Notes: generated by a model not told the origin, from the letters alone. 60,002 bases of DNA from Thermoplasmatales archaeon (GCA_012522645.1 JAAYKC010000018.1:1-60002), one strand, 5' to 3'. Positions 3,208 through 53,513 are shown, counted from the first letter of the stretch. A program made the numbers and translations.

Positions 3208-3262
3208 GAGCCCCTATGGACCAGCAGTAATTTAATCTCTTACAAGCGCAATCGGACCTCTC

Positions 3263-7149: not shown

Positions 7150-9060
7150 TCAAAACATGCTCAGCACAAGGTCCGAGTGTGCGACCGGATCATCAAGAGG
7201 TATGCCCGCCATTATGCTGGCCTGACCATACATGATCCTGACCATATCGGCCGCCTTATCCTTGTCCGACCCGATGGCATCCTCCAGAGCCCTGAACGCT
7301 GAGTGGTCTGCATTGAGCTCCAGTACCCGGGATGCTTTCATCTCGCCGCCCCTGCCGCCGGGCATCTCCCTGAAGTATTTCTCCATCTCGAAGGTTATGC
7401 TGCCGGTGGTCGTGAGCAGAACGGCATGATTCCTGAGCTTGCGGGAGATCCTGACCTCGGCAACATCATCGCCCAGGGTCGCCTTCACGAATTCCAGGGT
7501 ATCCTTGTGCTCTTCATCCTTCTCCTCCGCCTCCTTCCTCTCCTCCTCTGACTCCAACCCGAGGTCCTCGGTGGATACGTTGCAAAAGGGCTTTTTGTCA
7601 TACTCATTGAGGATGCTCACCAGGAACGGATCGACATCGTCTGTCATCAGCAGCACTTCGTAGCCTTTGTCCAGGACAGGTTCCATCTGCGGCAGGCTCT
7701 TAGCCTTCGATGCGGTGCTTGAGACCACATAGTATATCTTCTCCTGGCTCTCCTGCATGTTCTTCACATAATCGGCAAAGCTCACCATACCGCCCTTGGA
7801 GGACTCGAACATCACCAGGTCCTTCAGCGTGTCCTTGTCCGAGCCGAAATTATCCACCATGCCGTACTTGAGCTGCTGCCCGAAGCTGTCATAGAATTCC
7901 TTGTAGACATCCGGTTCATCCTTCATCAGACGCTCCAGCTCCGCCTTCACCTTCTTCGAGAGATTGGCTCCCACTGCTTTGAGGACGCTGTCATTCTGCA
8001 GCACCTCCCTCGATACATTCAGCGAGAAATCAGGTGAATCCACGACACCGCGCACGAAACGGAAGTGATACGGGAGTATGTCCGCACATCTGTCCATGAT
8101 CAGCACTCCGGACGAGTACAGCTGAAGGCCGGGCTGGAAATCGCGTGTGTAGAAATCGTGGGGCGCCCTCTTGGGCACGAACAGCATGGCCTTGTAGCTT
8201 ATGCGGCCCTCGGCATTCACCCGGATCACCGAGACCGGATCCTCATAATCATAGAACTGCCGCTTGTAGAATTCTTTGCATTCGTCATCTGATACCTCGG
8301 ACTTGCTCTTCTGCCAAAGGGGGACCATGCTGTTGATGACCTTGTTCTCAGTCTTCATGACGTAATCCCTTTTCGGCTCTCCGTCCTCATCCGTCTCACC
8401 GGTCTCCTCCCATTCTCCGGCCTCCACATCCATATGGATAGGCCAGCGGATGTAGTCAGAATATGTGACGATGAGCTCCCTGAGGCGCATCCGGTCAAGG
8501 AACTCATCATAGTTCTCCTCTTCCGTGTCCTCTTTTATGTGCATGATGACGTCTGTGCCAAAGGTGTCCTTCTCCCCTTTCTTTATCGTGTAACCGTCGA
8601 TGCCTTTGCTCTCCCATACGGATGCCTCATCTTCGCCGTAGGCTCTGGACACCACGGTCACCTTATCGGCGACCATGAATGCGGAGTAGAATCCCACACC
8701 GAACTGGCCTATGACATCGCTGTCAGCGCCCTCTTCCAATTTCTCCTTGAATTCGAAGGAGTCGCTGTATGCGATCATGCCCAGGTTCTTCTCCATCTCC
8801 TTGGCTGTCATCCCCGTGCCGTTATCGGATACGGTGATGGTGCGCGCCTCCTTATCTACCGAGACATCGATCCTGAAATCCTCCCTTGATATGTCCATGG
8901 AAGGATCGGCTACCATCCTGTGATTCATCTTATCGATCGCGTCGGAAGCGTTCGATATTATCTCCCTCAAAAAGATCTCCTTATGAGTGTAGATCGAGTT
9001 GATCACCAGCTCCATAAGGCGCTTCGTCTCTGCCTTGAACTGTTTCTTTGCCATTTTCAT
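7150..9060 (-). CDS. htpG: Molecular chaperone HtpG (Hsp90), bacterial type
   Basis: FKAETKRLMELVINSIYTHKEIFLREIISNASDAIDK and GQFGVGFYSAFMVADKV are Hsp90 N-domain signatures. 636 aa. Confidence 0.95.
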   Translation of the reverse strand: MKMAKKQFKAETKRLMELVINSIYTHKEIFLREIISNASDAIDKMNHRMVADPSMDISREDFRIDVSVDKEARTITVSDNGTGMTAKEMEKNLGMIAYSDSFEFKEKLEEGADSDVIGQFGVGFYSAFMVADKVTVVSRAYGEDEASVWESKGIDGYTIKKGEKDTFGTDVIMHIKEDTEEENYDEFLDRMRLRELIVTYSDYIRWPIHMDVEAGEWEETGETDEDGEPKRDYVMKTENKVINSMVPLWQKSKSEVSDDECKEFYKRQFYDYEDPVSVIRVNAEGRISYKAMLFVPKRAPHDFYTRDFQPGLQLYSSGVLIMDRCADILPYHFRFVRGVVDSPDFSLNVSREVLQNDSVLKAVGANLSKKVKAELERLMKDEPDVYKEFYDSFGQQLKYGMVDNFGSDKDTLKDLVMFESSKGGMVSFADYVKNMQESQEKIYYVVSSTASKAKSLPQMEPVLDKGYEVLLMTDDVDPFLVSILNEYDKKPFCNVSTEDLGLESEEERKEAEEKDEEHKDTLEFVKATLGDDVAEVRISRKLRNHAVLLTTTGSITFEMEKYFREMPGGRGGEMKASRVLELNADHSAFRALEDAIGSDKDKAADMVRIMYGQASIMAGIPLDDPVAHSDLVLSMF

Positions 9061-9622: not shown

Positions 9623-11386
9623 ATGAAGAAATGGAAATGCACAGTCTGCGGTTACATACATGAAGGAGAGGAACCCCCTGAGAAATGCCCCCGTTGCGGT
9701 GCTCCCCGGTCCGCCTTCGAAGCTTATGATGAAGCAGGCAATAATCCCAATACTGGCACTCACTATGCGAAGAGTGACACGGTGACTGATATTGTGGTTG
9801 TCGGGTCCGGAGCCGCGGCTTTCTCCGCAGCCGTAACAGCCAGGAGCAAGGGATCGGAAGTCATCATGATCGAGAAGGCAGAGGAGGTCGGAGGTACCAC
9901 AAAACGCTCAGGCGGAGGGTATTGGGTCCCGAATAACCGCTTCCAGAAGGATGCAGGGTACAGGGACAGCAAAGATGACGCCCTCCGATATATGGCGAGA
10001 TCCTCGTACCCCGGCGATTACGATCCCGAGGACAGCAAATACGGTCTCAGCGCACATCAGTTCGACCTCATGAGCTCGTTCTGTGATAACGCCCCCGAGA
10101 TGGCGGATTACCTTGAGAGCGTGGGAGCCATCAGATCCAAGATGGGAGTGGGCTGGAACGGCAAGGGCTATTGCGACTATGCCGAATTCCTGCCCGAAAA
10201 CAAAGGGGTCCGGGGACGTCTGCTGTTCTCAGAGAACGACAGGGGGCAGATGGGCTTCGGCCTCATAACCGGATTCAGGGACTGGGCCGATTCCAACGGG
10301 ATAACCATCATAACCAATTGCCGTGCCGCGGACCTCATCAGAAGGGATGGGTCTGTTATTGGCATCGAAGCATTGCAGAACGGTAAGCGCATCAGATTCT
10401 ATGCCCGGCAGGGCGTGATCTTCGGAACCGGAGGATATTCGCATAACAAGGAGCTCATGCAGAGCTTCCAGCCCGGCCCCGTCTACGGAGGGTGCGCGGT
10501 ATCCACCAACACAGGGGATTTCATATCCATTGCCGGCAAAGCAGGAGCCAAGATCGGGAATACCCGTGGTGCATTCAGAGCCGACAGCTTAGCCGAGCTG
10601 TACCTGGAGGACCCCGATAATCTGACGACCGTCTTCTTCGTCCCGGGCGACGGGATGCTCCTCGTCGACAAGCACGGGAAGAGATACGTCAACGAGAAGA
10701 GGAATTATAACGACAGAGGAAAGAGGCACTTCGACTGGGATGCGGGAAGAGCTGAATACAGGACCATGCTCACGTTCATGATCGCCGACGAGCGTACGGC
10801 TTCGATGTGGCAGGGTCACCCGCCGTTCCCGATCAAAGGGAACACTGTGCCAGACTATGTCATTATCGCCGAGGATCTTGATGTCCTGGCAGATAAGATC
10901 GCCGGGCGCCTGAAGAGGATCGCGAACCGTACGGGCGGTTTCTCCCTGGATCCTTCATTCAAAGAGAATCTCAAGGATACGGTGGAGAGGTTCAACGGGT
11001 ACGCCAGGAGCGGCAAGGACCCGGAATTCGGGCGCGGTGATTTCGATTATGATAAGGAATGGTCCATGACCCCTCCGACAGGAGTGGAGTGGCCTGACAA
11101 GAACAGTAAGAATATCACGATGCACCCCCTGAGCAAACCACCGTATTATGCTGCAATAATTGGATCTGGTACATTGGATACCAATGGCGGCCCGGTGATA
11201 GACGGGAGGGCCAGGGTGCTGGATTGGAACAATGAACCCATAGACGGCCTCTACGGAGCCGGCAACTGCATCGCATCGCCGACGGCTGATACATATTGGG
11301 GCGGCGGCAGCACCATAGGTCCGGCGATGACGTTCGGATACATAGCCGGGAAGCAGGCATCATCCAGGAAAAGGAAGAAGGTGTGA
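9623..11386 (+). CDS. Rubredoxin-fused FAD-dependent oxidoreductase (3-ketosteroid-delta1-dehydrogenase / fumarate-reductase flavoprotein family)
   Basis: N-terminal [21 protein letters not shown] rubredoxin-like knuckles, then a [15 protein letters not shown] dinucleotide fold. [16 protein letters not shown] and C-terminal GLYGAGN...[17 protein letters not shown] match the KstD/FAD_binding_2 pattern. Confidence 0.75.
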
Positions 11387-18210: not shown

Positions 18211-18912
18211 ATGAGGTTCTGCCGGAACTGCGGTAAGGAATTGGGCGAGGAGGATGTTATCTGCCCCCAGTGCGGTTCCGGTCAGGATGATGCACCCATA
18301 AGACCCAGGCCCCGGGACAGGACACCGTATTACGTCATCGCAGCGGTTCTGGTGCTCGTCGCCGCTGTTTTGATCGTCCCGATCTTCTTTCAGGAACAGA
18401 TCTCTGAGCAGCATTCGTACAAGATGACCTTCACAGTGGACTGGTACGCTGTTGTGGACGCCAGCGGGACCGTCGATAACGGCTACGATTCAGATGCGGA
18501 GGTCTACTTCCAAATAACCTACAACGGGAAAACAGAGTATCTTCTGGTAGATACGGACGATCCGCTTGAGTATTATTCAACCCATTCGGTCACTGTATAT
18601 ACCGATGTTTCGACGGCAATGGAGAAAAGAACCGAACCCACAGAATACAATACAACCGTTTTCTATGTCTCCGGAGGAAGGACTGCCGTGTCCATAACGG
18701 TATTCATGCGCGACTACGACGGCGGCGCGAAATTCGGCGAATCCTCTGATGATATCCTGGACATATACGATGCTAACTCTGATTACGGCAGCTCCGGCAG
18801 CCAGGGGATAATAATCAATGTCCCGGTAGGCAAGGATAAAACAGGCCAGTCCGGCGGAGACATGGACCCCCGCGGATTCTTCGGATATACTGTGTCTTTC
18901 GAGAGGATCTAG
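18211..18912 (+). CDS. Zinc-ribbon, single-pass membrane protein with an extracytoplasmic domain (hypothetical)
   Basis: MRFCRNCGKEL...CPQCG at the extreme N-terminus, then a TM segment (YYVIAAVLVLVAAVLIVPIFF). Ends in TAG. Confidence 0.55.
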   Translation: MRFCRNCGKELGEEDVICPQCGSGQDDAPIRPRPRDRTPYYVIAAVLVLVAAVLIVPIFFQEQISEQHSYKMTFTVDWYAVVDASGTVDNGYDSDAEVYFQITYNGKTEYLLVDTDDPLEYYSTHSVTVYTDVSTAMEKRTEPTEYNTTVFYVSGGRTAVSITVFMRDYDGGAKFGESSDDILDIYDANSDYGSSGSQGIIINVPVGKDKTGQSGGDMDPRGFFGYTVSFERI

Positions 18913-19868
18913 CTCACGTAAACTGTGTTGAAAACAGCAGGGAATAAGTGGAATGTGGAGAATGCGTAATTTCCAGATATATCGCCGGGAGGGGAGTCGG
19001 AGCTGGTAGTCTCCAGCATCCAATATCCCTTCGATCCGTGGTATATCTCCTTAACATAGTTCACTCCGTATTCCAGCTTATCATTGCCGGAAATGGCTGA
19101 CTTGGTTCCCGCAGGCTTCATCCCGATTATCGCCATGGCATGCCCTGGCAGAAGGGCTATCCCCGAATCGAATCCTGCCGCCGTCAGAAGTGCCGCCGTC
19201 AGAATGGATGTGTCCTCACAGTCCCCGCCCATGAAATAGAGGGTCTCCACAGGATAGTTCCAGTACTCGTCCGTCCCGTGGATGTCCGAATCGTTCAGAT
19301 ACTTCATATTGCTGTCACCGCTGCGGCCGCGGCTCTGGCAGAAGTTTATGAGGAATGTGGCGTAATTCGGATTTGTTGAATCTGCCGGGCCGTATTCCGA
19401 CGGGAACATGTCTCTGAGCTTTGCCTCGATATCAACGATCGTCCGCCCGATCACTATATACTCGCTCACCGCCCAGATCGTCTTGGAGTTGGTGTCTGTT
19501 CCGGAGGTATACGTTGTGTGAGATGAGGAACCGGCCCGATCTATGGTGCTGCTCATAGCGGCATTGAGGTCATCGGCATCGATCTCGAACTCCAGAGTGT
19601 ATGTCTTCGAGTCAACAATGAATCTCCAGCTGTTGGTCCGTACCAGGTTTTCAGTGCTGTCATCCTTGTCCTGGAACAGGAACGGGGCCAGGGACGCAAC
19701 CAACAGGACTATTACGACTGCTGCGACCGCCCTCGCATTGTTTCTTCTTCCGGTCCTGTCGGGGGCATGGGGAACTTCATCGGAATCTTGCAGATAGGCT
19801 CCGCAGCCCGTACAAAAATTCAGGGACTCGTCGTCGTATGTTCTTCCGCACCTCCCGCAACGCCGCAT
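18909..19868 (-). CDS. Zinc-ribbon, single-pass membrane protein with a transglutaminase-like (Cys-protease fold) extracytoplasmic domain
   Basis: MRRCGRCGRTY...CTGCG ribbon, a TM segment, then GGDCEDTSILTAALL...PGHAMAI, which resembles the transglutaminase-core Cys/His arrangement. ATG at 19868 sits about 25-30 nt downstream of a TATA-like box (leaderless). The track start at 19886 is GTG. Confidence 0.55.
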   Translation of the reverse strand: MRRCGRCGRTYDDESLNFCTGCGAYLQDSDEVPHAPDRTGRRNNARAVAAVVIVLLVASLAPFLFQDKDDSTENLVRTNSWRFIVDSKTYTLEFEIDADDLNAAMSSTIDRAGSSSHTTYTSGTDTNSKTIWAVSEYIVIGRTIVDIEAKLRDMFPSEYGPADSTNPNYATFLINFCQSRGRSGDSNMKYLNDSDIHGTDEYWNYPVETLYFMGGDCEDTSILTAALLTAAGFDSGIALLPGHAMAIIGMKPAGTKSAISGNDKLEYGVNYVKEIYHGSKGYWMLETTSSDSPPGDISGNYAFSTFHLFPAVFNTVYVS

Positions 19869-20040: not shown

Positions 20041-20104
20041 CGGCCGCACGGAGCGGCCGGCTCCCTGATCCCGGAATGCTGCGCATTCTGTTGTTTCGAT
20101 TTCC
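20041..20104. other. Two consecutive GC-rich hairpins plus a T-rich tract in an unusually GC-rich spacer
   Basis: CGGCCGC-acgga-GCGGCCG (20041-20059) and GAATGC-tgc-GCATTC (20074-20088), followed by tgttgtttcgatttcc. Confidence 0.25.
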
Positions 20105-20106
20105 GT

Positions 20107-20463
20107 TCATTCACCGCATTCATCGTGGTGTATATGATCGTTGCAGACCTCCCCGGTGGATTTCAAATTCCCTCTGAGATAGTCTTCCGCTGCAGCTCTG
20201 GCATCCCCGGATGCGCCCACTATGACCTCGATGCCGTTCTCATTGAACAGATCTATGGCTGCGGCGCCCATACCGCCGGATATTATTACGTCCGCCCCGC
20301 GCTCTTTGAGGAAGACCGGCAGGAATCCGGGGCGGTGTCCCGGGTTCTCTATGGCTTCTGAGCCCGTTATAACGTTGTTCTCGGCATCATATGCCCTGAA
20401 ATATCTGCAGTGACCGAAATGTTGGGTCACGTTCTCTCCATCACTTGCTACTATTATTCTCAT
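20107..20463 (-). CDS. NifX/NifB-C-terminal-like (dinitrogenase FeMo-cofactor-binding family) small protein with a Cys/His-rich tail
   Basis: MRIIVASDGENVTQHFGHCRYFRAYD...GMGAAAIDLFNENGIEV fits the PF02579-like pattern. Tail CNDHIHHDECGE. AGGAG lies 9 nt upstream of the ATG at 20463. Confidence 0.7.
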   Translation of the reverse strand: MRIIVASDGENVTQHFGHCRYFRAYDAENNVITGSEAIENPGHRPGFLPVFLKERGADVIISGGMGAAAIDLFNENGIEVIVGASGDARAAAEDYLRGNLKSTGEVCNDHIHHDECGE

Positions 20464-20516
20464 TTTCTCTCTCCTTTCTCTCTGTAAATCATTTAATCGT
20501 GATATTCTGCCCGACA

Positions 20517-21338
20517 TCATATCTCCAATATATCTCCTGTTCTCAGAAGCTGCACGCTCTCTCCCATCATCTCCTTCATCACCTCATAGGCCGAATCATC
20601 GGTGCAGTGACAGGTACAGAACCGGGCCCCTGTATCCGAAAGGGCCTGGGACATCTCGCGTACATACTGCAGGTCCTCTCCGCTCCCGGGCCTTATCCTG
20701 AGGTGGAATCCTCCCATGACAAGATCGGGGTATCTTCCCAGGATCTCCTTGGCCTCGGCGACGATGTTGACGATCCCGCGGTGAGCGCATCCGGTGATCA
20801 ATACGGACTTCCCGCCCTCTTCGACGATCATGTGCTGCTCATGCTCGAAATCGTCCGGACGGACGTTGCCCTCTGACCCTGCGAATAAGGATCTGTTGCT
20901 CTCCGAGACAGGATATTCTGTTCCGACCTCACTGAATATCGTGATACCGTCCCCCAGTCTGACCTTCCCGGACGTCAGGACCATACGGGCATCATCCATG
21001 AGCCCCGGATCCAGACCTATATCCTCATATCTCCCGCCGGATCTCAGAGCCAGATGGCGATCGAAGGCTTTTCTGTGCACATATACCGGAGCGCTCCCGT
21101 TGACCTCCAGGAATCTCGGGATCCCCCCGCCGTGATCGTAATGCCCGTGGGATATGACGGCCATACGGACTTCTGACAGGTCCACTGCCATGATCTCCGC
21201 ATTCCCGGAGAACATATCGCTCTGCCCTGTATCGAAGAGGATGCTCCCTGCCTCTGACTCCAGATGGAGGCTCAGCCCGTGTTCGCCCCTGGGCCCGCCG
21301 GGGACCGATCTGTTATCAGTCAGAACATGTACCTTCAT
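20517..21338 (-). CDS. MBL-fold metallo-hydrolase family protein
   Basis: VISHGHYDHGGG motif. 273 aa. Stop and start overlap with both neighbours. Confidence 0.7.
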   Translation of the reverse strand: MKVHVLTDNRSVPGGPRGEHGLSLHLESEAGSILFDTGQSDMFSGNAEIMAVDLSEVRMAVISHGHYDHGGGIPRFLEVNGSAPVYVHRKAFDRHLALRSGGRYEDIGLDPGLMDDARMVLTSGKVRLGDGITIFSEVGTEYPVSESNRSLFAGSEGNVRPDDFEHEQHMIVEEGGKSVLITGCAHRGIVNIVAEAKEILGRYPDLVMGGFHLRIRPGSGEDLQYVREMSQALSDTGARFCTCHCTDDSAYEVMKEMMGESVQLLRTGDILEI

Positions 21339-22213
21339 CAGGCGGTCTCTCCGAAAAGCAGTTCTTCAACCCTGCCGAAGATGTCCCGGACGGCGTCACC
21401 GGCGGGACTGTCCGCATCTGCGAGAGTAAGGCCGCGGTTCACAGCCTTCACAGCCTCCGGGTCATAAGGGATCTCGCCTATGTACGGCACTTCCCTCTCT
21501 TCGCAGCGCTCCCTTATGCGTTTCGTCAGCCTGGCATTCAGATCGGCCTTGTTCACGCATACGACAGAGTGGGCCTTCAGACCTTTGGCCGTATCGAGTA
21601 TCCTCTCCATGTCACTGAGCCCGGATACGGACGGTTCCGCAACGATCAATACCATGTCGACGCCGGAAATGGACGCTATGACGGGGCACCCGATTCCCGG
21701 AGATCCGTCTATGATCGCCAGTTCCTCGCCTCCGCCCGCCTTGACCATCTGCTTCTTGACCTCGGTGACCAGCAGGCCCGACGTACCGTTGCCTACCCTC
21801 AGCTGTGCGGTCGAGAATATCCCTTTCTCCGGATCTGTGAATAATCTGATGTCTCCTGCCACTGCAGGGCGCATCTCTATGGCTCCGACAGGGCATATCA
21901 CCTCACAGAGCCCGCACCCCTCACAGACGCGTGCATCGACCGTCGTCGTTATTCCGACATTGACGGCATCGAAACGGCACATCTCCGAGCAGAGCCCGCA
22001 CATAGTGCAGGTCCCTTCGTCGATGCGGGCCTTCGGAAGGCCGAAATAGTCCTTCCTTTCCTCTGTGCCGTCGTACTTGAGTATCAGATGAAGATTCGGT
22101 GCGTCCACGTCACAATCCGCGCATGCCCTCGCTTCGAAGAGGCGGATCAGGGCACCTGCGACGGTCGTCTTGCCGGATCCGCCTTTTCCGCTCAGGATCA
22201 GGAGCTGCTTCAT
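21338..22213 (-). CDS. MinD/ParA-type P-loop ATPase with an inserted 2x[4Fe-4S] ferredoxin module
   Basis: GKGGSGKTT P-loop. CTMCGLCSEMCRFDA and CEGCGLCEVICPVGA cluster motifs. Confidence 0.8.
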   Translation of the reverse strand: MKQLLILSGKGGSGKTTVAGALIRLFEARACADCDVDAPNLHLILKYDGTEERKDYFGLPKARIDEGTCTMCGLCSEMCRFDAVNVGITTTVDARVCEGCGLCEVICPVGAIEMRPAVAGDIRLFTDPEKGIFSTAQLRVGNGTSGLLVTEVKKQMVKAGGGEELAIIDGSPGIGCPVIASISGVDMVLIVAEPSVSGLSDMERILDTAKGLKAHSVVCVNKADLNARLTKRIRERCEEREVPYIGEIPYDPEAVKAVNRGLTLADADSPAGDAVRDIFGRVEELLFGETA

Positions 22214-23052
22214 GCCGTCATCTCCAGGATATTATCCAGGATCTTCCGGAACATCTCCCTGAATTCAGCGCTCTCCTCCGATGCTATCCTTGCCTCGGAG
22301 GTGATATCACTCAGCTCCCTGTCGAACGGAATCCTGCCCAGTACCGGGATGTTCCTCTCGGAGCAATACTCCTCCGAGGGATTCGCCTCGCCTTCGATGT
22401 CCTTGTTGAGTATCACCCCGAAGGGTTTGTTGAATGCACGGGATAATTCCACCACAACGTCCAGATTATGCGCCCCGAATATCGTAGGCTCGGTGACCAG
22501 CACGCAGAAATCTGCGTCCTTTATGCTTTCCATGACCGAGCATGAACTGCCGGGGGGGCAGTCTATGAATGTGAGGTCCTCTTCCGACACAGAAGGATTC
22601 TGAAGGAGCCTGGCTATTATAGGCAGACCTGCCACCTCTCCCACGTCCATAACCCCTGTGCGGACGTGCACATCCCCGGAGATTCCTGATTCCACGCGCC
22701 CGATCGCCCTTGGGTGCTCCGTGATTGCCTCCTGCGGGCAGATCACGGCGCATCCCCCGCATGAGTGGCACATCTCGTTGAACACCTTCACGCGGTCCAG
22801 GGTGTACACCATTGCGTTGAACCTGCAGAACTCTATGCATTCTCTGCATCCGTCGCATTTGTCCGGGTCGGAACGGGGCACGAGAACGGATACCTCCTCG
22901 GACACCACTTCCTTCGGTTTGAGATAAAGATGGCCGTTCGGCTCTTCCACGTCGCAGTCCACATATGCAGAGGTTCCTGCGACCTTCGCGAGATTCACCG
23001 ACACCATAGTCTTGCCGGTGCCTCCCTTGCCGCTTAGCACCGCGATATTCAT
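22210..23052 (-). CDS. MinD/ParA-type P-loop ATPase with an inserted 2x[4Fe-4S] ferredoxin module (paralog)
   Basis: GKGGTGKT P-loop. CDGCRECIEFCRFNA and CHSCGGCAVICPQEA motifs. Confidence 0.8.
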   Translation of the reverse strand: MNIAVLSGKGGTGKTMVSVNLAKVAGTSAYVDCDVEEPNGHLYLKPKEVVSEEVSVLVPRSDPDKCDGCRECIEFCRFNAMVYTLDRVKVFNEMCHSCGGCAVICPQEAITEHPRAIGRVESGISGDVHVRTGVMDVGEVAGLPIIARLLQNPSVSEEDLTFIDCPPGSSCSVMESIKDADFCVLVTEPTIFGAHNLDVVVELSRAFNKPFGVILNKDIEGEANPSEEYCSERNIPVLGRIPFDRELSDITSEARIASEESAEFREMFRKILDNILEMTA

Positions 23053-23417
23053 CAGTTGGCCCCGCCGTGATGCCCTTCATGGATTGTCTCCAGTTCATTC
23101 ATGCCCCCTCCCAGGTATGTATCTATGTTCGTCTTCGCCTTCCCGGGGGCAGCTGCCATTATCTTGATGTTCCCCCCGTTGAGCACTTCATAAGCACGGT
23201 CACCGCACCGTATGGTCAGTAGGACCTTTGCTCCCGTGTCTATTATTATCTGAGCGGCCTTGACCCCTGCGCCCGATGGGCTGTCCATGGCCGGATTAGA
23301 TATGAAATCCGAAGCTTTCGCATCCGTATCATAGATCATGAAATACGGTGCTCTGCTGAGCGATTGGGCTATATCCGGATCTTCCGCCTTGCTGTTGACT
23401 GGCATTATTATTTTCAT
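23052..23417 (-). CDS. NifX/NifB-C-terminal-like small protein with a His-rich tail
   Basis: MKIIMPVNS...APYFMIYD...GAGVKAAQIIIDTGAKVLL pattern. Tail HEGHHGGAN. Confidence 0.7.
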   Translation of the reverse strand: MKIIMPVNSKAEDPDIAQSLSRAPYFMIYDTDAKASDFISNPAMDSPSGAGVKAAQIIIDTGAKVLLTIRCGDRAYEVLNGGNIKIMAAAPGKAKTNIDTYLGGGMNELETIHEGHHGGAN

Positions 23418-23418
23418 T

Positions 23419-23799
23419 TCATTCCTCCTGTCTCTCTGATGCGCTTATCGCATCCATACCCCGAATGCGCCTGCAGGTCTTCCGTCTGTGGCAGTCCCCG
23501 CTGTACTCGCATACCCTGTAGTTGCCTCCTCCGATCACCAGAGGTATCCCCTCTACGAGGGATCTCGCCATCTTCCGTCTGGCTTTGCTGTAGATGTCCT
23601 GCACGGTCGTACGGGCAACGCCCATGCGGTCCGCGCATTCATCCTGCTTCATGCCCATGTGATCTATGAGGCGTATCGTCTCATATTCCTCAACGTCCAT
23701 GCAGATTATCTCCTCCGAACTGAAATTCTCATTCAGCGGACCGTACTCCCTTCTGTTTGGGAGCCGGCAGACATTTCTCCGTTTCTTTGGACGCGGCAT
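23419..23799 (-). CDS. DUF134 (UPF0251) predicted DNA-binding protein with a Cys-rich C-terminal tail
   Basis: MPRPKKRRNVCRLPNRREYGP is the characteristic DUF134 N-terminus. HTH-like core MKQDECADRMGVARTTVQDIYSKARRK. Tail VCEYSGDCHRRKTC. Confidence 0.75.
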   Translation of the reverse strand: MPRPKKRRNVCRLPNRREYGPLNENFSSEEIICMDVEEYETIRLIDHMGMKQDECADRMGVARTTVQDIYSKARRKMARSLVEGIPLVIGGGNYRVCEYSGDCHRRKTCRRIRGMDAISASERQEE

Positions 23800-23866
23800 G
23801 ATCGGTTTCTCCTATATGGCACTTGAATCCCGTGAGGGTAATGTGTGCCCGGGGTATTTTAGTTTC

Positions 23867-23878
23867 TGACATATGTCA
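23867..23878. promoter_or_regulatory. Perfect 12-bp palindrome upstream of the DUF134 operon (candidate operator)
   Basis: TGACATATGTCA lies 68-79 nt upstream of the DUF134 ATG, between AT-rich TATA-like stretches. Confidence 0.3.
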
Positions 23879-24054
23879 ATAACTATTCATGTAATAAAAA
23901 GGTTCTGGTGCGGGAACGGACGGAAGAGATGCCGTCGTTATGATATTTTCATCCGAAGGACGCGGTATCCTCCTCTCACTGCCCGTACGGTACGGCATAT
24001 GCCTCCGTCAGGACATCATGGGCATAAATAGCAAAGGATTAATCGACGGAACCC

Positions 24055-25389
24055 TTGAGTCTGACCGTGAGCGTAGAGGATGCAGTGCTTCGGAGGATCG
24101 TGCCCGATCCCGAGCTTTCAGACAGGATCAGGGCTACCACGGAGAAGATGACGGCCGAGACCGAGAGATATCTGGCCGAGAAAGACATCGCTGCAGAGGT
24201 GAGGTGCGTGGGATCCGTCGCCAAGGGCACATTCCTGGCAGAACCCGATATAGATCTTTTCGTGATGTTCCCCGAGGATACTCCGAGAGAAACGATGGAG
24301 GGAAAGGGACTGCGCATCGGAGAGGACATCCTCGGCGGGAGGAAGATGTACGCTGAGCACCCTTACACAACTGGATCATACGACGGCTTCGAAGTGGACC
24401 TGGTCCCCTGCTACAAGGTAACGAGCCCGGAGAAGATGCTCTCCGCCGTCGACAGGACCCCTTTCCATACGGATTATGTGCTCTCCAAAACAGATGCGGC
24501 CGCGAAGGACCAGATCCGTCTTCTGAAGACGTTCATGAAGGGCATATGGGCCTACGGCGCCGAGCCTAACAACAGAGGATTCTCAGGATACCTCTGCGAA
24601 CTGCTTGTGATACGGTACGGTGACTTCAGATCCGTGCTGGAAGCGGGGGCGACCTGGAAGGAGGGCGTTTCCATATCTATGGATAAGAAGGGGCCTCCGA
24701 TGGTCGCTCCCCTGGTATTCTATGATCCGGTGGACCCCCGCAGGAATGTCGCATCCGCCGTTCACGTAGATACCTTCGCCCTGTTCATAACCGCATGCAA
24801 GGCGTATCTCAACGAACCGTCAGAGAATTTCTTCTTCCCGAATGACAGGGTGCCTGCGCCCACATCCGAGCTCAGAAGACTGGTGAAGGTGCACGGAAGC
24901 CGTCTGCTGACCGTGATATTCAAAAGACCCGACATAAACGAGGACAATCTGCACTCCCAGATGTGGAAGACCCGTTATGCGCTCTCCAAGAAATTGGATG
25001 CCTTCTCCTTCAATGTACTGAGGGCGGTTCACGATCTCGGCCGTGAGGATCTGGCATTCATATTCGAACTGGAGAGGGACCTTCTTTCGAAGACGTTCAA
25101 GCACGTGGGCCCCCCGGTGTGGGTCGGCTCTGCCGGATCATTCCTCGAGAAATGGAGAAACAACGAATTCGGCGAGCCTTTCATAGAGGACGGATCCTGG
25201 AAGGTCATAGCTGAGAGGATGTACTTCACTGCGGCCGAGATGCTCGCGGACGAAGCGGTCTTCTCAGGCATAGGGCGTGAGATAGACCCTGCCACAATGA
25301 GGATCCTGGATCACGACGACACGCTGTCGATGGCGGACGCAGGTCTGCTGACCGATCTTCTGGACCCGAAACTGCCTTGGGAGATATGA
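24055..25389 (+). CDS. cca: CCA-adding enzyme (archaeal class I tRNA nucleotidyltransferase)
   Basis: GSVAKGTFLAEPDIDLFVMFP nucleotidyltransferase motif, RTPFHTDYV, about 440 aa. The start is uncertain (TTG at 24055 or GTG at 24067). Confidence 0.85.
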   Translation: MSLTVSVEDAVLRRIVPDPELSDRIRATTEKMTAETERYLAEKDIAAEVRCVGSVAKGTFLAEPDIDLFVMFPEDTPRETMEGKGLRIGEDILGGRKMYAEHPYTTGSYDGFEVDLVPCYKVTSPEKMLSAVDRTPFHTDYVLSKTDAAAKDQIRLLKTFMKGIWAYGAEPNNRGFSGYLCELLVIRYGDFRSVLEAGATWKEGVSISMDKKGPPMVAPLVFYDPVDPRRNVASAVHVDTFALFITACKAYLNEPSENFFFPNDRVPAPTSELRRLVKVHGSRLLTVIFKRPDINEDNLHSQMWKTRYALSKKLDAFSFNVLRAVHDLGREDLAFIFELERDLLSKTFKHVGPPVWVGSAGSFLEKWRNNEFGEPFIEDGSWKVIAERMYFTAAEMLADEAVFSGIGREIDPATMRILDHDDTLSMADAGLLTDLLDPKLPWEI

Positions 25390-36624: not shown

Positions 36625-36775
36625 CGCCGGGCGAAGAGGATGTCACGAAGGCCCCGGAGGATGTCCGTTCTGAAGACGATGCCGATCCTTGTTGGATGCG
36701 GCCCCTGGTATCGGTGAAGAGTCAGGACAGAAAGGATATATGATTCCATTCGATTAGGTGGACTCGGAGACGGGG

Positions 36776-37681
36776 ATGAAGAACTGGGAGTTCGACAAGG
36801 TAAGAGACAAGACTGTGAAGTTGGACAACGCCCTGGCTGATATGATGGGGCTCGTGGACGGCGGATACATCTACAGCACGCTTTTCGAGTACGATAACGA
36901 GAGCCCGAAGAAATACGAGCTCATCCTGTCCACTTATCCTCAGGAGAACTACAGGACGCTTACTAACATCACGATGTACATCCAGGATGTGCCGGGCTCC
37001 AGCGCCCAGGCGGCCAGATTCCTGGGGGACAGGGACATCAACATACTGAACTCCATCTCCCTGGAGGGCATATCCGATACGATCATCATATGGAAGATGC
37101 TCGTGGACCTTAACTTCGCAGGAGAAGTGAGCATTCTCACAGAGAAGTTCGCCGAGCTGAAGGAGAGGAATGACCCCTCTGTCTCCAAGATAGATCACAT
37201 ACAGATCAAGCCTGCCGATATAGGCCGCGTCTTCAGGACCGAAGGGCGTTCCGACAAGATAGAGATCAGGAGAGGAGTCCCGATCACCCTCAAGGATAAT
37301 ACCTATGACCTCTCGGTCGAGTACAGCGACATCTTCGAGGACTTCGAGGGAGAATCCGTCATGGTGGCAGCGGACTACGCCTCCTGGATCGTCTCCATCT
37401 CATTCTTCAAAGGAGAGACGAAACTGGTGAGGATAGGTCTGGAGATACCCGACTGCCCCGGATCCATAACCCAAGTACTGGATTGGATAGCGACAAAGAA
37501 CGTCAATCTCATCTCGGTGTTCAGCAAGATAAAGATCTGCTATCAGACGATGACATTGGACCTGGTGGCCGATTTCAGCGGCTGCAGGATGTCGATGGAC
37601 GAGTTCAGGATCAGCCTCGAGGATGCCCTGGAGGACATGAACGGGATCTTCGTCCTGACCCAGTATGAGGAGTTGAAATGA
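36776..37681 (+). CDS. Double ACT-domain protein, first gene of the acs operon
   Basis: Two ACT-like segments (ITMYIQDVPGSSAQAARFLGDRDINILNS; IGLEIPDCPGSITQVLDWIATKNVNLISVF). ATG at 36776 preceded by GGAG (the track gives GTG at 36758). ATGA overlap with acsB. Confidence 0.55.
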   Translation: MKNWEFDKVRDKTVKLDNALADMMGLVDGGYIYSTLFEYDNESPKKYELILSTYPQENYRTLTNITMYIQDVPGSSAQAARFLGDRDINILNSISLEGISDTIIIWKMLVDLNFAGEVSILTEKFAELKERNDPSVSKIDHIQIKPADIGRVFRTEGRSDKIEIRRGVPITLKDNTYDLSVEYSDIFEDFEGESVMVAADYASWIVSISFFKGETKLVRIGLEIPDCPGSITQVLDWIATKNVNLISVFSKIKICYQTMTLDLVADFSGCRMSMDEFRISLEDALEDMNGIFVLTQYEELK

Positions 37682-39891
37682 GCGTTCCCCCGACAGTTGA
37701 CGGGACGGCTTCCAAATACGGCATTGATTCCGCAGAGGAGATATCCTTCCTGCTGGAGAAGGTGAAGGCACCCGACGTCCCGTCCTTACTGGCACTTGCA
37801 GCAGAAGGGTCTGATGCCCTGGTGTCACTGGCCAAAAGATGCGTCAGGGCGGCCTCTGCGAAGCACGGAGACAACACCATTCTGGAATATCCCGAGACCG
37901 GGTACGGCGTGCCTTCCTTGTACGCCTGGAAGGGCATAGAGCGTCTGACCCTGAGGGATGCGACAGAGCTGTTGGATTCTCTTGATCCTGCGAAAAATGT
38001 TACTCTGGAAGACGGCCTGGCGGCAGGGGAGAATGCGATGTACGCAGCGGACATCCTCGAAGCGATAACCTATATCGGTGCCGAAGAGGCGAACCGGGAC
38101 GGTTTCATACCCGACCGCGTGATAAGGGAACTGGGGCTCAGTCTCGTGGACGAGACCATTCCGGGAGCTGCGGTTTTCTTGGGCGATACGGAGAGCGGAA
38201 ACGTGGCCCGGATGGCCAAGGACATACAGTCAAAAGGCATGCTGGGTCTTGTGACGTCCGGTACGCTTTCACCCGGATATGCAGAGAAGATGAGAGAGAA
38301 CGACATCGCCATGGGGCTTGACAGGATGATGTATCCTCTCGGCAACTTCACGGGAATAGTGCATGCCCTCAATTTCGATGTACGTGCGGCCCTCACTTTC
38401 GGAGGGGTCACGTCCGGCGACAGGGAAAAATTGTCATCGTATCTGGCCAAAAGACCAAAGGTCTTCGTGATCAAGACCGGAGATCTCAGCAGACTGGAGG
38501 CCTCTATCGCCTTCGCGGCCCTCATGCACAGTGCGCCCATAATCACAGACTCCGATCTGCCGGAGGTGCCCGGTGCCGTGAAGAGCACCGAAGACCTGGA
38601 GAGAATGGTCCAGGTGGGCATAGAGGAAAGAGGGATAATCGTAACACTGGAACCTCTGGATCTGCCTGTCGGCTACGGTCCGTCCTTCGAGGGAGAAGTA
38701 CTGAGAAAGCCTGATACATACATGGAAGCGGGAGGAGGCAGGAGCACAGCCTTCGAGTTGCTCGTCTCCAGGAACGAGGGCGAGATAGAGGACGGCAGGA
38801 TCCTCCTCATAGGCAAGGACCTGGACAAGATATCTGAGGGCTCCGTCATCCCTCTGGCTATGATCGTAGAAGTCTACGGCAGGGATATGCAGAGTGATCT
38901 GGAGCCTGTCATGGAACGCAGATTCCACAGCGGCATAAACTTCGCTGAGGGCATCTGGCACACCGGCCAGAGGAACTCGAATTGGGTCAGGATAAGCAAG
39001 AAGGCAGCGGCGAAGGGCTTCCGCATGACAGATCTGGGCAAGATGCTGATGCATACAGTCAGAAAAGAGTTCGGCAAGATCGTCACACGCATCCAGGTAA
39101 CTGTAATTACTGACCCTGACGAGATAGAGCGCCGCCTTCCAGCTGCCAAGGAAATCTATGGTGCCAGAGATGAAAGGATGAGAGGCCTCAAAGATGATCT
39201 GGTAGACTGTTTCTACACCTGCGCAATGTGCCAGTCCTTCGCTCCAGGGCACATATGCATCATATCACCGGAAAGACTGGGTCTTTGCGGTGCGATTAAC
39301 TGGCTGGATGCGAAGGCGGGCAATGAACTGGCCCCTTCCGGCCCCAATATGCCGGTAAGCATGGGGGTCACACTGGATAGTGCCAAAGGGGAATGGTCCG
39401 GAGTCAATGAGGTCGTGTCATCCGCATCATCCGGTACCGTTGAGAGGATGTGCCTCTACAGCCTGATGGACGCTCCGATGACCTCCTGCGGCTGCTTTGA
39501 GGTCATAATCGCGATGACCGTGGACATGCAGTCCGTGGTGCTCGTTGACAGGGATTATCTCGGCATGACGCCGATCGGCATGAAATTCTCCACCCTGGCC
39601 GGCTCCATAGGCGGGGGAAGGCAGACCCCCGGGTTCATGGGCGTCGGCAGGAAGTACATAACCAGTGAGAAGTTCATAGCCGCCGAGGGTGGGCTGCCCA
39701 GAGTCTCCTGGATGCCCAAGCGGCTCAAGGAGATGCTCGGCGAGGAGCTTGGTAAAAGGTGCCAGGATCTGGGAATTCCAGACCTCATGGACAAGATCGC
39801 AGACGAAACAATAACAGATGACGCCGAGGGGCTCATGGCGTGGATGGCAGAGGTTGATCATCCCGCCCTCCATATGGAGCCTCTCCTGTAG
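37678..39891 (+). CDS. acsB: Acetyl-CoA synthase, bacterial full-length AcsB type (A-cluster subunit)
   Basis: CAMCQSFAPGHICIISPERLGLCG matches the C-x2-C-x8-C-x9-C [4Fe-4S] ligand pattern. SCGCFE is the Cys-Gly-Cys Ni-binding motif. 737 aa including the about 300-aa N-terminal domain, colinear with Moorella-type AcsB. Ends in TAG. Confidence 0.92.
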   Translation: MSVPPTVDGTASKYGIDSAEEISFLLEKVKAPDVPSLLALAAEGSDALVSLAKRCVRAASAKHGDNTILEYPETGYGVPSLYAWKGIERLTLRDATELLDSLDPAKNVTLEDGLAAGENAMYAADILEAITYIGAEEANRDGFIPDRVIRELGLSLVDETIPGAAVFLGDTESGNVARMAKDIQSKGMLGLVTSGTLSPGYAEKMRENDIAMGLDRMMYPLGNFTGIVHALNFDVRAALTFGGVTSGDREKLSSYLAKRPKVFVIKTGDLSRLEASIAFAALMHSAPIITDSDLPEVPGAVKSTEDLERMVQVGIEERGIIVTLEPLDLPVGYGPSFEGEVLRKPDTYMEAGGGRSTAFELLVSRNEGEIEDGRILLIGKDLDKISEGSVIPLAMIVEVYGRDMQSDLEPVMERRFHSGINFAEGIWHTGQRNSNWVRISKKAAAKGFRMTDLGKMLMHTVRKEFGKIVTRIQVTVITDPDEIERRLPAAKEIYGARDERMRGLKDDLVDCFYTCAMCQSFAPGHICIISPERLGLCGAINWLDAKAGNELAPSGPNMPVSMGVTLDSAKGEWSGVNEVVSSASSGTVERMCLYSLMDAPMTSCGCFEVIIAMTVDMQSVVLVDRDYLGMTPIGMKFSTLAGSIGGGRQTPGFMGVGRKYITSEKFIAAEGGLPRVSWMPKRLKEMLGEELGKRCQDLGIPDLMDKIADETITDDAEGLMAWMAEVDHPALHMEPLL

Positions 39892-39899
39892 GTGATGAA

Positions 39900-43885: not shown

Positions 43886-43906
43886 AGCATAGACCCCGTA
43901 TCCTTA

Positions 43907-45421: not shown

Positions 45422-45481
45422 GGTACCGTATATCACAAGGATACCAATAAAAGAATGTGCGGGAAACCGATATAACAGCGT

Positions 45482-53348: not shown

Positions 53349-53513
53349 GAATTTGAAAAATACTATTCGTTTGTCCAGTAGAATCAGATTTTATCTGTTC
53401 TATTAGACAAATGTCTAATGTATTTTTAATTGAAACAACGAATAAACATTAAGTTTATATCGCTCCAGAGCACATTAACGTGCACGCGGCAAATGTGCCG
53501 CAAGGTGAGAATA

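Follow-up and report, generated by a model that had tools for sequence, protein, structure and literature searches.

Six closely packed genes on the minus strand (20107-23799) of a 60,002-nt window, the whole stretch of Thermoplasmatales DNA that was analysed, constitute an archaeal homologue of the genes for the ORP complex of Desulfovibrio vulgaris (Orp3/Orp4, Orp5/Orp8 and MrpORP). We consider it probable that their products form an ORP-type complex for the ATP-dependent handling of metal-sulfur clusters, and that the operon is autoregulated by the DUF134 protein that it encodes. Because of the homology, the module is neither new in kind nor uncharacterised. A preliminary description of this DNA had presented a machine of unknown function, which has to be amended in that the genes belong to a published system; for the system in Desulfovibrio, a putative role in cell division has been proposed.

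Gene content of the operon

All six ORFs were verified at their positions, and every domain exceeds its Pfam gathering threshold (PF02001, PF02579 twice, CbiA/ParA with Fer4 twice, and PF00753). The genes encode a DUF134/UPF0251 protein (23419-23799; 126 aa, PF02001 at 1e-19), NifX-like A (23052-23417; 121 aa, PF02579 at 5e-16), two ATPases with CbiA/ParA and Fer4 domains, MinD-Fer A (22210-23052; 280 aa) and MinD-Fer B (21338-22213; 291 aa), an MBL-fold protein (20517-21338; 273 aa, PF00753) and NifX-like B (20107-20520 as first read; PF02579 and NCBIfam NF041136). This agrees with the domain content given in the preliminary description, whose motifs were likewise all found (C-x5-C-x5-C, HEGHHGGAN, CxxCxxCxxxC twice in each ATPase, HGHYDHGGG and CNDHIHHDECGE). 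Its account of overlapping or near-abutting junctions holds for the first four: a 1-nt gap at 23418 between the DUF134 and NifX-like A genes, a 1-nt overlap at 23052 between those for NifX-like A and MinD-Fer A, a 4-nt overlap at 22210-22213 between the ATPase genes and a 1-nt overlap at 21338 between those for MinD-Fer B and the MBL-fold protein. The last, a 4-nt overlap of the MBL and NifX-like B genes at 20517-20520, is doubtful and probably not real. Homologues of NifX-like B, as well as the gene calls of three related archaea, begin at the equivalent of Met20, and GGAG precedes this ATG at 20463. It is probably the true start, giving a protein of 118 aa, and in place of the overlap 53 nt would then separate the MBL gene from the start.

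Both MinD-Fer proteins are MinD-type SIMIBI ATPases that have a deviant Walker A motif and into which a 2x[4Fe-4S] ferredoxin domain (two motifs each) is inserted; they are paralogues of a single architecture with 29% identity. The insertion, unique to the MinD-Fer family, follows switch I and precedes the next core strand. MinD-Fer B, which has more than 7,494 homologues at E<=1e-10, has as invariant residues K10, K15, C34, the eight ferredoxin cysteines, D169 and C176, and the cysteine seven residues after the Walker B aspartate is invariant in both paralogues. The AF2 model of MinD-Fer B (pLDDT 87) is nearest in fold to MinD and FleN, and then to HypB, CooC1 and NifH (Foldseek).

The two NifX-fold proteins score 59.3 and 73.2 bits against PF02579 (cut-off 26.3). 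By its sequence matches, NifX-like A has the NifX fold of the MTH1175/TM1290/orange-protein type: it matches PDB entries 1eo1 (5e-14), 1rdu (1e-10) and the D. gigas ORP, 2wfb (2.4e-8), with MTH1175 and TM1290 as its closest solved relatives. Its tail, HEGHHGGAN, is rich in histidine, H113 and H117 being conserved at 96-99% among homologues, and it lacks Cys17, a residue of 72% of them. NifX-like B ends in CNDHIHHDECGE, matches PDB entries 1t3v/1o13 and 2yx6, and aligns with positions 258-365 of the MrpORP model NF041136 (E=7e-30), scoring 104.5 bits where the equivalog cut-off is 450; its motifs are conserved at 88% or more among homologues. Relatives bind cofactors (NifB-co, FeMo-co), clusters (Mo-Cu-S or [3Fe-4S]-like) or thioferrate. 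The PF02579 proteins have no nitrogenase context here; a homologue search of the window for NifH found none, in keeping with the earlier statement that the window has no nitrogenase genes. More generally, the family binds complex or anionic Fe-S species (PMC5524996).

The MBL-fold protein carries the motifs HGHYDHGGG, TGCAH and TCHCT, and its PDB matches, 2p4z (1.5e-40) and 3h3e (8e-30), are both uncharacterised proteins. The DUF134 protein scores 71.3 bits against PF02001 (cut-off 27), and five cysteines, C11, C55, C97, C103 and C109, are each conserved in at least 94% of 66 aligned sequences. Its AF2 model is confident for residues 32-89 and of low confidence in the Cys-rich parts. The modelled core is a sigma-70 region-4-like HTH, matching sigma region 4 over ~48 residues at an rmsd of 0.6-0.9 Å (Foldseek), and DNA binding is predicted. 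We regard the protein as a candidate autoregulator and putative Fe-S or redox sensor.

Conservation of the module and its operator

We surveyed synteny in 80 sampled genomes or loci, drawing the per-gene counts from the 52 loci that were fully flanked. The order DUF134-NifX-MinD-MinD-(MBL)-NifX recurs across these 52, which come from many anaerobic lineages, so that the co-conservation that the preliminary description had called for checking is found. MinD-Fer A is present in 52/52, NifX-like A and MinD-Fer B in 51/52 each, DUF134 in 46/52 and a terminal NifX or Mrp-NifX protein in 44/52. The MBL gene, present in 19/52, encodes an accessory member of the module. One order across 80 sampled genomes is clustering far beyond chance. 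Bacterial operons also hold genes of Fe-S biogenesis, namely for a Mrp/NUBPL-type ATPase and NifU_N/IscU, and Mrp genes, fused or adjacent, occur in bacterial versions. The 60-kb window contains no gene for Mrp/NBP35, its version of the module has neither IscU nor DUF5320, and the route of cluster supply is therefore not visible at the locus.

Metatranscriptome contigs tile the entire operon and span four of the five gene junctions. They stop at a 26-bp imperfect palindrome, an inverted repeat at 23860-23885, the most 5' contig ending at 23859. The 12-bp core of the palindrome, TGACATATGTCA (23867-23878), lies 79 nt 5' of the DUF134 ATG, with GAAACT coming next, and is the sole match in the window at up to one mismatch. 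The core was found upstream of DUF134 genes in 27 exact matches when 0.39 were expected; it is exact in three archaeal loci (L001, L087 and L089) and identical between Methanomassiliicoccales and Bacillota. When up to two mismatches are allowed, 45 of 56 loci keep it upstream of their DUF134 gene, and the operator usually occurs as paired copies 36-39 bp apart. Judged by this conservation, the palindrome, which had been pointed out upstream of the operon from the window alone, is a real operator maintained from bacteria to archaea, and one that is new here. Copies also lie 5' of genes for IscU, DUF364/DUF4213, DUF5320 and a GltB-like Fe-S/FMN protein; those before the IscU and DUF364 genes tie the module to Fe-S biogenesis. 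Co-occurrence points to the five-cysteine DUF134 protein as the candidate regulator acting through this operator. On inspection, the T-rich stretch TTTTTATTA (23892-23900, minus strand), which lies upstream of the operator at ~24 nt from its centre, may serve as the TATA-like box of the predicted operon promoter; in related archaeal loci, TATAAAT or TTATAA occupies the equivalent position.

Proposed function and its alternatives

The reading that we favour is of a cytoplasmic machine that, in a strictly reducing environment, would receive, hold and pass on clusters of the Fe-S or another metal-sulfur type. MinD-Fer A and MinD-Fer B are likely to pair up as an ATP-sandwich heterodimer because of their deviant Walker A motifs, translational coupling and invariable co-occurrence, co-purification being shown only for Orp3/Orp4. 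Each subunit would bear two [4Fe-4S] clusters, the motifs being present in the proteins of the window and the clusters demonstrated in Orp3/Orp4. The two NifX-fold carriers may dock on the ATPase pair and hold a cargo cluster by means of the His/Cys motifs conserved in them and, by analogy with NifH, CooC, Nbp35 and HypB, ATP binding and hydrolysis could gate the hand-over of a cluster or electron from the carrier to a client or the reverse. The MBL-fold protein would be an optional metal-dependent accessory. Finally, the DUF134 protein may bind the TGACATATGTCA operator, which would overlap the transcription start, repressing or derepressing according to Fe-S or redox status and so taking the role of OrpR, the [4Fe-4S] sensor of Desulfovibrio. 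ATP-driven cluster or metal transfer with NifX carriers, and possibly a cluster-sensing regulator, had been suggested from the window, and the suggestion is borne out in part by the Desulfovibrio homologues, which associate in a complex and both hold and accept clusters: Orp3 co-purifies with Orp4 and Orp8, and the ORP proteins hold Fe-S clusters, which MrpORP transfers to them (PMC6345978). Cluster handling is further supported by the Mrp/NBP35-type carriers and IscU in the bacterial module and the operator regulon, and by the published regulation of the Desulfovibrio orp operons, which an Fe-S sensor confines to very low redox potential (PMC8359166).

Alternatively, the operon might serve in the handling and detoxification of Mo, W or Cu thiometallates, the NifX folds binding Mo/W-S(-Cu) species that the ATPase pair loads or unloads. 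The habitat is sulfidic, the D. gigas ORP, a relative of NifX-like A, contains a [S2MoS2CuS2MoS2] cluster, and a link to the Mo cofactor was suggested by the authors who discussed AF2378-2380 of A. fulgidus (PMC3949148). We nevertheless find this unlikely, if worth keeping in mind, since NifX-like A is nearer to MTH1175/TM1290 than to ORP, and Mod/Tup/Wtp (Mo/W transport) or molybdopterin genes do not recur in the 80 loci, where an ABC transporter of the iron-chelate type, IscU and Mrp are the neighbours that do recur. Another way to read the ATPases is as a low-potential reductase or activator following NifH/BchL-like logic, in which ATP would drive electrons, not a cluster, to the client. 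Such a role, which overlaps with cluster handling, would suit the union of a deviant Walker A motif and Fe-S cluster motifs on one polypeptide, the presence of NifH and BchL among the Foldseek matches, and the invariant cysteine after the Walker B aspartate, whose spacing matches that of D125-C132 in the verified NifH sequence. It would also suit the expression of the Desulfovibrio orp operons, which occurs only at very low redox potential, ~-425 mV, through an Fe-S sensor (PMC8359166). It is quite unlikely all the same, for the alignment with NifH is reliable only at the P-loop and switch I, the position of NifH Cys97 is not a cysteine, PF00142 is scored below its threshold, and no sampled locus has a NifDK/BchNB-like partner.

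That the MinD-like pair localises a division or polar complex strikes us as very unlikely. The top Foldseek matches of the ATPase are indeed MinD, FleN/FlhG and McdA, but likeness of fold is generic to SIMIBI ATPases, HypB, CooC and NifH among them, and the two proteins reach only 46-49 bits against the NCBIfam model minD_arch, whose cut-off is 201.75. MinC and MinE are missing from the operon and the sampled loci, inspection of the ATPase C-termini did not reveal a conserved basic amphipathic membrane-targeting helix, and what the operons and the operator regulon contain are genes for Cys-rich metal proteins, IscU and the Mrp carriers among them, instead of division genes. As for the MBL-fold protein, the JGI and NCBI pipelines name its homologues [quoted passage not shown] (EC 2.5.1.105), which would make it an enzyme of the methanopterin pathway and the cluster a chance juxtaposition of unrelated genes. 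This is hardly credible: homologues from Clostridia, which are not known as methanopterin makers, bear the identical name, every context examined for MBL homologues falls within an ORP-type module, and RNA contigs cross the junction between the MBL and ATPase genes.

Relation to known systems

Several other systems share parts with the module. Like the maturation line of the nitrogenase cofactor, with its NifU scaffold, NifX/NafY carriers and NifH ATPase, the extended bacterial version of the module combines carriers of the NifX fold with a NifU_N/IscU scaffold and with a SIMIBI ATPase that bears Fe-S and whose Walker A motif is deviant, whereas NifB radical-SAM, NifEN, NifDK and a NifH orthologue are all absent from it, and the single bridging cluster of NifH contrasts with the ferredoxin inserts of the module ATPases. 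The SIMIBI ATPases that insert metallocentres, namely Mrp/Nbp35/ApbC, CooC and ATPase-type HypB, have the same fold class, conserved cysteines near the switch regions and ATP-dependent dimerisation, which is predicted for the MinD-Fer pair too, but the CxxC of Nbp35 and the CxC of CooC are absent from the MinD-Fer ATPases, which have the 2x[4Fe-4S] insertion. IssA, which stores thioferrate in Pyrococcus furiosus, and MTH1175-type proteins share with the module the IPR003731/PF02579 fold and an anaerobic, sulfidic context. IssA, however, has a cationic Gly/Arg/Trp tail (PMC5524996), while the NifX tails of the window are rich in His or in Cys/His; a Gly/Arg-rich region resembling such a tail occurs in the separate DUF5320 protein of bacterial operons, which the window lacks.

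The closest counterpart is the ORP complex. Fievet et al. in 2011 and follow-up papers reportedly described it as "anaerobe-specific" in sulfate-reducing bacteria, and its phenotype in Desulfovibrio is said to be morphological and to have been read as a putative role in cell division. Its genes form two divergent operons dependent on sigma-54, OrpR and IHF, unlike the single operon with a TATA-like box described here, which no EBP gene adjoins; in place of OrpR, the window has DUF134 and a conserved palindromic operator. MrpORP is a fusion of a Mrp/NBP35 P-loop domain to a Di-Nase domain, of which the window keeps only the free Di-Nase half, so that two NifX folds stand against Orp5, Orp8 and the fused Di-Nase domain in Desulfovibrio. 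The inserted MBL-fold gene and the archaeal host are further differences. Nevertheless, both systems possess two MinD-type ATPases that are paralogues and bear two ferredoxin motifs of the [4Fe-4S] kind apiece (Orp3/Orp4 being compared by their published description) and single-domain NifX-fold or "Di-Nase" proteins (Orp5 and Orp8, the orange protein), the motifs HFGHC and C(x)DH are common to MrpORP and the window in their Di-Nase domains, and both are restricted to anaerobes, with their genes clustered and co-expressed.

The operon, its probable transcript and its spread

All six genes of the operon are found on the minus strand at 20107-23799, as the preliminary description had proposed, and each of their domains exceeds its Pfam gathering score. 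The DUF134 gene (23419-23799; 126 aa; PF02001) is followed by those for NifX-like A (23052-23417; 121 aa; PF02579), the paralogous ATPases MinD-ferredoxin A (22210-23052; 280 aa) and MinD-ferredoxin B (21338-22213; 291 aa), both matching the CbiA/ParA and Fer4 families, the MBL-fold protein (20517-21338; 273 aa; PF00753), and NifX-like B (20107-20520; longest ORF 137 aa; PF02579). The motifs originally ascribed to these proteins were all recovered. Head to tail, the ORFs are joined by a 1-nt gap and overlaps of 1, 4, 1 and 4 nt. The first four junctions stand as first reported, but the last overlap (20520/20517) is probably a 53-nt spacer with the start of NifX-like B at ATG 20463, because residues 1-19 are not conserved among 49 homologues, the protein is called at 118 aa in three related archaea, and a GGAG precedes this internal ATG.

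Two metatranscriptome runs from the same samples as the metagenomes holding the window sequence yielded RNA contigs that tile 20092-23859, to be read with the caveats that these are assembled contigs, that the library label is odd and that DNA carry-over is possible. Individual contigs cross the MBL/ATPase-B junction (20639-21968), the ATPase-B/ATPase-A and ATPase-A/NifX-A junctions (22089-23181 and 22256-23351) and the NifX-A/DUF134 junction (23176-23422); none covers 18800-19470 or 23952-24175. This pattern fits a single transcript running from the operator region to just beyond NifX-like B.

The flanking genes, which encode an amidohydrolase, a second MBL-fold protein, zinc-ribbon proteins, the CCA-adding enzyme, RadA and a methyltransferase, are housekeeping or membrane functions unrelated to the operon, and the six genes are a self-contained unit. 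As stated in the preliminary description, nitrogenase genes are absent: a search of the window found no NifH, and a nitrogenase-related role is rejected, NifH, NifD and NifK all being missing. Searches of the window for DUF5320, IscU and Mrp/NBP35 genes likewise found none; a weak P-loop match at 42138-43061 belongs to a CooC-like gene in the ACS/CODH block. An Rfam scan of the operon region returned no RNA element, and scans for sigma-70 promoter and intrinsic terminator consensus sequences, which are unsuited to an archaeon, stayed at background. Several operon proteins have their closest homologues in Candidatus Methanomethylophilaceae or Methanomassiliicoccales archaea, RadA and a CCA enzyme of archaeal type are encoded in the window, and near-identical DNA is present in metagenomes from anaerobic digesters, wastewater, manure and landfill. 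Elsewhere in the window, a full-length HSP90/HtpG homologue lies at 7150-9060 (PF00183, 1.5e-106); since HtpG is uncommon in archaea, this gene may be another bacterial acquisition.

The module is widespread. More than 7,494 of 8,000 candidates scored belong to the MinD-ferredoxin B family at E<=1e-10, and conservation is unusually high, with about 58-62% identity between the archaeal protein and its Bacillota counterparts. For gene content we compared the six window proteins with all ORFs of the best 80 of at least 551 related stretches, from a scan with one genome per species. These loci are mostly from Bacillota, with others from Synergistaceae, Cloacimonadota, Sphaerochaeta, Anaerolineaceae, Izemoplasmatales and two Methanomassiliicoccales. 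The operon genes do co-occur elsewhere: in the 52 loci whose flanks are complete, MinD-ferredoxin A is found in 52, MinD-ferredoxin B and NifX-like A in 51 each, DUF134 in 46, a terminal NifX-like B or Mrp-NifX fusion in 44, and the MBL gene in 19. Eleven loci keep the exact six-gene order and 14 the five-gene order lacking MBL, and independent gene calls with precomputed Pfam matches agree with this picture. A long 'Mrp-NifX' ORF in L002 proved to be a high-GC out-of-frame extension rather than a fusion.

Extended bacterial versions follow the order (DUF5320)-DUF134-(NifU_N/IscU)-NifX-MinD-Fer-MinD-Fer-MBL-Mrp/NUBPL-type ATPase-NifX, often accompanied by DUF364/DUF4213, DUF5714 or a C_GCAxxG_C_C-NifX fusion. 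DUF5320 (PF17253), absent from the window, opens the operon in 31 of the 80 loci (for example L049 433-735, L084 3171-3455 and L034 5914-6258); its N terminus carries the motif MPRGDGTGP, its middle is rich in Gly and Arg and recalls the cationic tail by which IssA binds anionic thioferrate, and its C terminus is a coiled coil. Between DUF5320 and DUF134, at about -58 to -20 upstream of the latter, loci such as L012, L013, L014, L015, L020, L038 and L053 carry a strong hairpin of 13-16 bp, also absent from the window, whose pairing is kept while the stem sequence varies; perhaps it acts as an attenuator, terminator or processing site that separates DUF5320 expression from that of the remaining genes.

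In four Methanomassiliicoccales relatives (L001, L087, L088 and L089), one of which lacks the MBL gene, the module sits in differing genomic neighborhoods and thus behaves as a portable unit. The window encodes an oxidoreductase with rubredoxin-like (RUBY_RBDX) and FAD_binding_2 domains at 9623-11386, at a distance of 12 kb from the operon; in one of these relatives, L089, a gene with this domain pair (2784-4568) is less than 1 kb upstream of the module.

The upstream palindrome and DUF134

Upstream of DUF134, where the preliminary description had placed a palindrome, a perfect 12-bp core, TGACATATGTCA, lies at 23867-23878 within a 26-bp imperfect palindrome at 23860-23885, one base beyond the end of the most 5' RNA contig (23859). 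It is the sole match with at most one mismatch in the 60-kb window. Matches were counted in the 400 nt that precede DUF134, for the 56 loci with a placeable start, taking the expectation from the density in the rest of each locus. The exact core occurs 27 times in 21 of these loci (0.39 expected); with up to one mismatch there are 54 matches in 39 loci (1.09 expected), and with up to two, 71 matches in 45 (2.66 expected). The sites are usually paired, 36-39 bp apart, and their position is right in front of either DUF134 or, in the many bacterial operons that begin with it, the DUF5320 gene. Nearly all other matches in the loci also precede module genes, and several stand ahead of other genes: NifU_N/IscU (L066, L085/L086), DUF4213/DUF364 (L081/L082), a second NifX gene (L017) and a Cys-rich GltB-like FMN protein of ~520 aa (L042, L050).

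Among archaea the core is exact in the window, L001, L087 and L089, with the close variant CGGCATATGCCG in L088; GAAACT comes after it, and a TATA-like box stands ~20-25 nt upstream, the distance at which archaeal transcription starts. Judged by its sequence conservation, the palindrome is an operator shared across Bacteria and Archaea, a new finding; our literature search returned no mention of the motif in this context, and searches on DUF134/UPF0251, DUF5320, COG1149 and MJ0301/K06897 returned nothing relevant. The six operon proteins are ~45-62% identical to Bacillota homologues (loci L003-L080), and the operator is identical. Together with the unrelated contexts in L087-L089, this suggests that operon, regulator and binding site moved between domains as one.

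As the module's sole DNA-binding protein, and one compatible with a palindrome, DUF134 is the obvious candidate to bind the operator; the proposal draws on their co-occurrence. Its model is confident for an HTH core (residues 32-89), some 48 residues of which can be superposed on sigma-70 region 4 at 0.6-0.9 A, and of low confidence in the Cys-rich N- and C-terminal parts. Its five cysteines (C11, C55, C97, C103 and C109) are each at least 94% conserved.

Two further observations concern operator-like sequences. Other contigs of metagenome run X3 have matches confined to the operator stretch 23860-23887 and a short piece of DUF134, which fits other community members with the same operator. The window also encodes a CobW/HypB/UreG-family (CobW-type) GTPase at 52251-53348 and then, at 53430-55118, a Cys-rich Glu_synthase-like FMN protein 39% identical to the operator-bearing GltB-like genes of L042 and L050. 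Before this gene of the window lies a degenerate palindrome, TTAGACAAATGTCTAA (53403-53418), whose 10-bp core has one mismatch; this match is not significant by count, with 3 such cores in 60 kb versus 1.8 expected.

Ligand patterns and folds of the operon proteins

Across 76-82 sequences per paralogue, both ATPases conserve at 94% or more a deviant Walker A (SGKGGxGKT), eight ferredoxin cysteines, a switch I cysteine (DCDV) and a cysteine seven residues past the Walker B aspartate (DGSPGIGC in B, DCPPGSSC in A). The signature lysine of the deviant Walker A marks ATP-sandwich dimers. NifX-like A conserves H113 and H117 of its His-rich tail at 96% or more, and most homologues carry Cys17 and Cys71, position 17 being Ala in the window protein. 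In NifX-like B, H34, H37, C38, H62, C126, H129, H131 and C135 are conserved at 88% or more. Together with the DUF134 cysteines and the motifs of the MBL protein, these sequence patterns are those of metal or cluster ligands.

We found no solved structure of the MinD-ferredoxin family. The AlphaFold2 model of ATPase B (pLDDT 87) has a core to which Foldseek finds MinD, FleN/FlhG and McdA nearest, then ATPase-type HypB, CooC1, NifH and BchL; the predicted fold is a generic SIMIBI one, for which Foldseek does not discriminate positioning from metallocenter ATPases. The Walker-B+7 cysteine has the spacing of NifH cluster ligand Cys132, in a reference sequence that agrees with the PDB at 289/290 positions. 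In the automatic alignment with NifH, the P-loop and switch I are the only trustworthy parts; there ATPase C34 pairs with the non-ligand NifH Cys38, and the residue at the NifH Cys97 position is not Cys; a putative NifH-like inter-subunit cluster site is therefore only a lead.

The MBL protein has its closest solved relatives in the uncharacterized structural-genomics proteins 2p4z (1.5e-40) and TM1679 (3h3e), and conserves its HxHxDH site together with TGCAH and TCHCT. We class it as an optional accessory of the module that depends on metal.

Function and relation to known systems

The operon is very probably an ORP-type module, related to the orange protein complex known from Desulfovibrio vulgaris Hildenborough (PMC6345978). 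NifX-like B matches the C-terminal domain of MrpORP (positions 258-365 of the NCBIfam model 'iron-sulfur cluster carrier protein MrpORP', E=7e-30), and its TQHFGHCRYF and CNDH are counterparts of the conserved Di-Nase domain motifs CxHFGHCE and CDH (PMC6345978). Among solved structures, NifX-like A has a match in the D. gigas ORP (2wfb, 2.4e-8), with MTH1175 and TM1290 closer. In D. vulgaris, Orp3 and Orp4 are paralogues with two [4Fe-4S] ferredoxin motifs apiece, Orp5 is homologous to a NifX-fold protein that binds a [2Fe-2S] cluster, the orange protein itself (Orp8) binds a Mo-Cu-S cluster non-covalently, and Orp9, or MrpORP, fuses a 'Di-Nase' NifX-fold domain to an Mrp/NBP35 domain (PMC6345978). 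Orp4 and Orp8 co-purify with Orp3, and MrpORP holds [4Fe-4S] and [3Fe-4S]-like clusters and passes clusters to apo-Orp3/4/8 in vitro (PMC6345978), so that, for homologues, it is on record that an Mrp-type carrier supplies the ATPase pair with Fe-S clusters. Transcription of the orp genes is confined to very low redox potential and controlled by OrpR, a sigma-54 activator that carries a [4Fe-4S] cluster; the Archaeoglobus fulgidus homologues AF2378-AF2380 show constitutive high expression (PMC3949148). The earlier statement that such modules have no experimentally assigned function thus needs qualifying: the ORP homologues have published biochemistry, but the physiological role proposed for them is only putative.

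On balance, and with some reserve, we favor ORP-type, ATP-gated cluster handling under the control of DUF134. The gene content and cluster-binding motifs are observed in the window, and the Orp3/4/8 complex, its bound Fe-S clusters and expression confined to strongly reducing conditions are documented for homologues, as is the binding of complex or anionic metal-sulfur species by NifX-fold proteins. The two ATPases would pair as an ATP-sandwich heterodimer on which the NifX-fold proteins dock as cluster carriers, and ATP turnover would gate the passing of a cluster, or of electrons for cluster assembly, to a client. The DUF134 cysteines may sense Fe-S or redox state and so control the operon at the operator. 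Possible clients are proteins of an ACS/CODH-related block at 36758-45610, which comprises a beta subunit of the CdhC/ACS type (37678-39891), two subunits of a corrinoid Fe-S protein, both of the CdhD family (39900-42151), the P-loop ATPase resembling CooC (42138-43061) and RACo, a reductive activator (43907-45610).

Other readings draw on parts of the same evidence. Handling of Mo, W or Cu thiometallates would agree with the Mo-Cu-S cluster of Orp8; we think this reading unlikely. An ATP-driven reductase serving a client overlaps in part with ATP-gated cluster handling and, taken by itself, seems rather improbable. The literature describes the anaerobe-specific orp genes as 'putatively involved in cell division', and a role in division or positioning would suit the MinD-like relatives of ATPase B; given that this fold is a generic one, we consider it very unlikely. 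A methanopterin function for the MBL gene is scarcely tenable. Its homologues P0241-P0360 are pipeline-named '7,8-dihydropterin-6-yl-methyl-4-(beta-D-ribofuranosyl)aminobenzene 5'-phosphate synthase', a methanopterin-pathway enzyme, even in Clostridia, which are not known to make methanopterin, so that the name is probably over-propagated. We rejected this assignment since, in addition, every homologue context examined lies inside the module.

A bolder proposal, to which we give little credence at present, is that module, Cys-rich regulator and operator would form a self-contained, anaerobe-specific pathway that builds, stores or delivers Fe-S or heterometal-sulfur clusters straight from sulfidic metal pools and was transferred between Bacteria and Archaea as a unit, operator included. 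If true, it would be an extra system of cluster biogenesis and trafficking beside ISC, SUF and NIF, and could matter to lineages in which, as reported for some Methanomassiliicoccales (PMC8351635), SufBC is missing.

Few conserved gene clusters that still await a function are as widespread in strict anaerobes as the ORP-type module. That an archaeal methanogen lineage has the same operon as bacteria, that one 12-bp operator is common to two domains of life, and that the bacterial regulon takes in IscU and Mrp-type Fe-S carriers shift the functional debate from 'cell division' towards metallocluster handling. A testable hypothesis is gained, namely that DUF134 is an Fe-S or redox-sensing regulator of the module. 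Specialists in anaerobe Fe-S biology are unlikely to be surprised; our contributions are the cross-domain operator, the IscU/Mrp regulon link, transcript evidence, one gene-start correction and a warning about the MBL name, and the gain lies in testable handles on a long-standing unknown.

Set beside known systems, the extended bacterial operons resemble a stripped-down version of the nitrogenase-cofactor line, running from scaffold to carrier to Fe-S ATPase. The kind of system is already known from the ORP complex, and its archaeal occurrence has been noted before. The window version differs from that of Desulfovibrio in being a single operon, in having a DUF134 gene and operator where Desulfovibrio has OrpR and sigma-54, in a Di-Nase domain that is free of the Mrp domain, and in the inserted MBL gene, and this variant is itself common among anaerobes.
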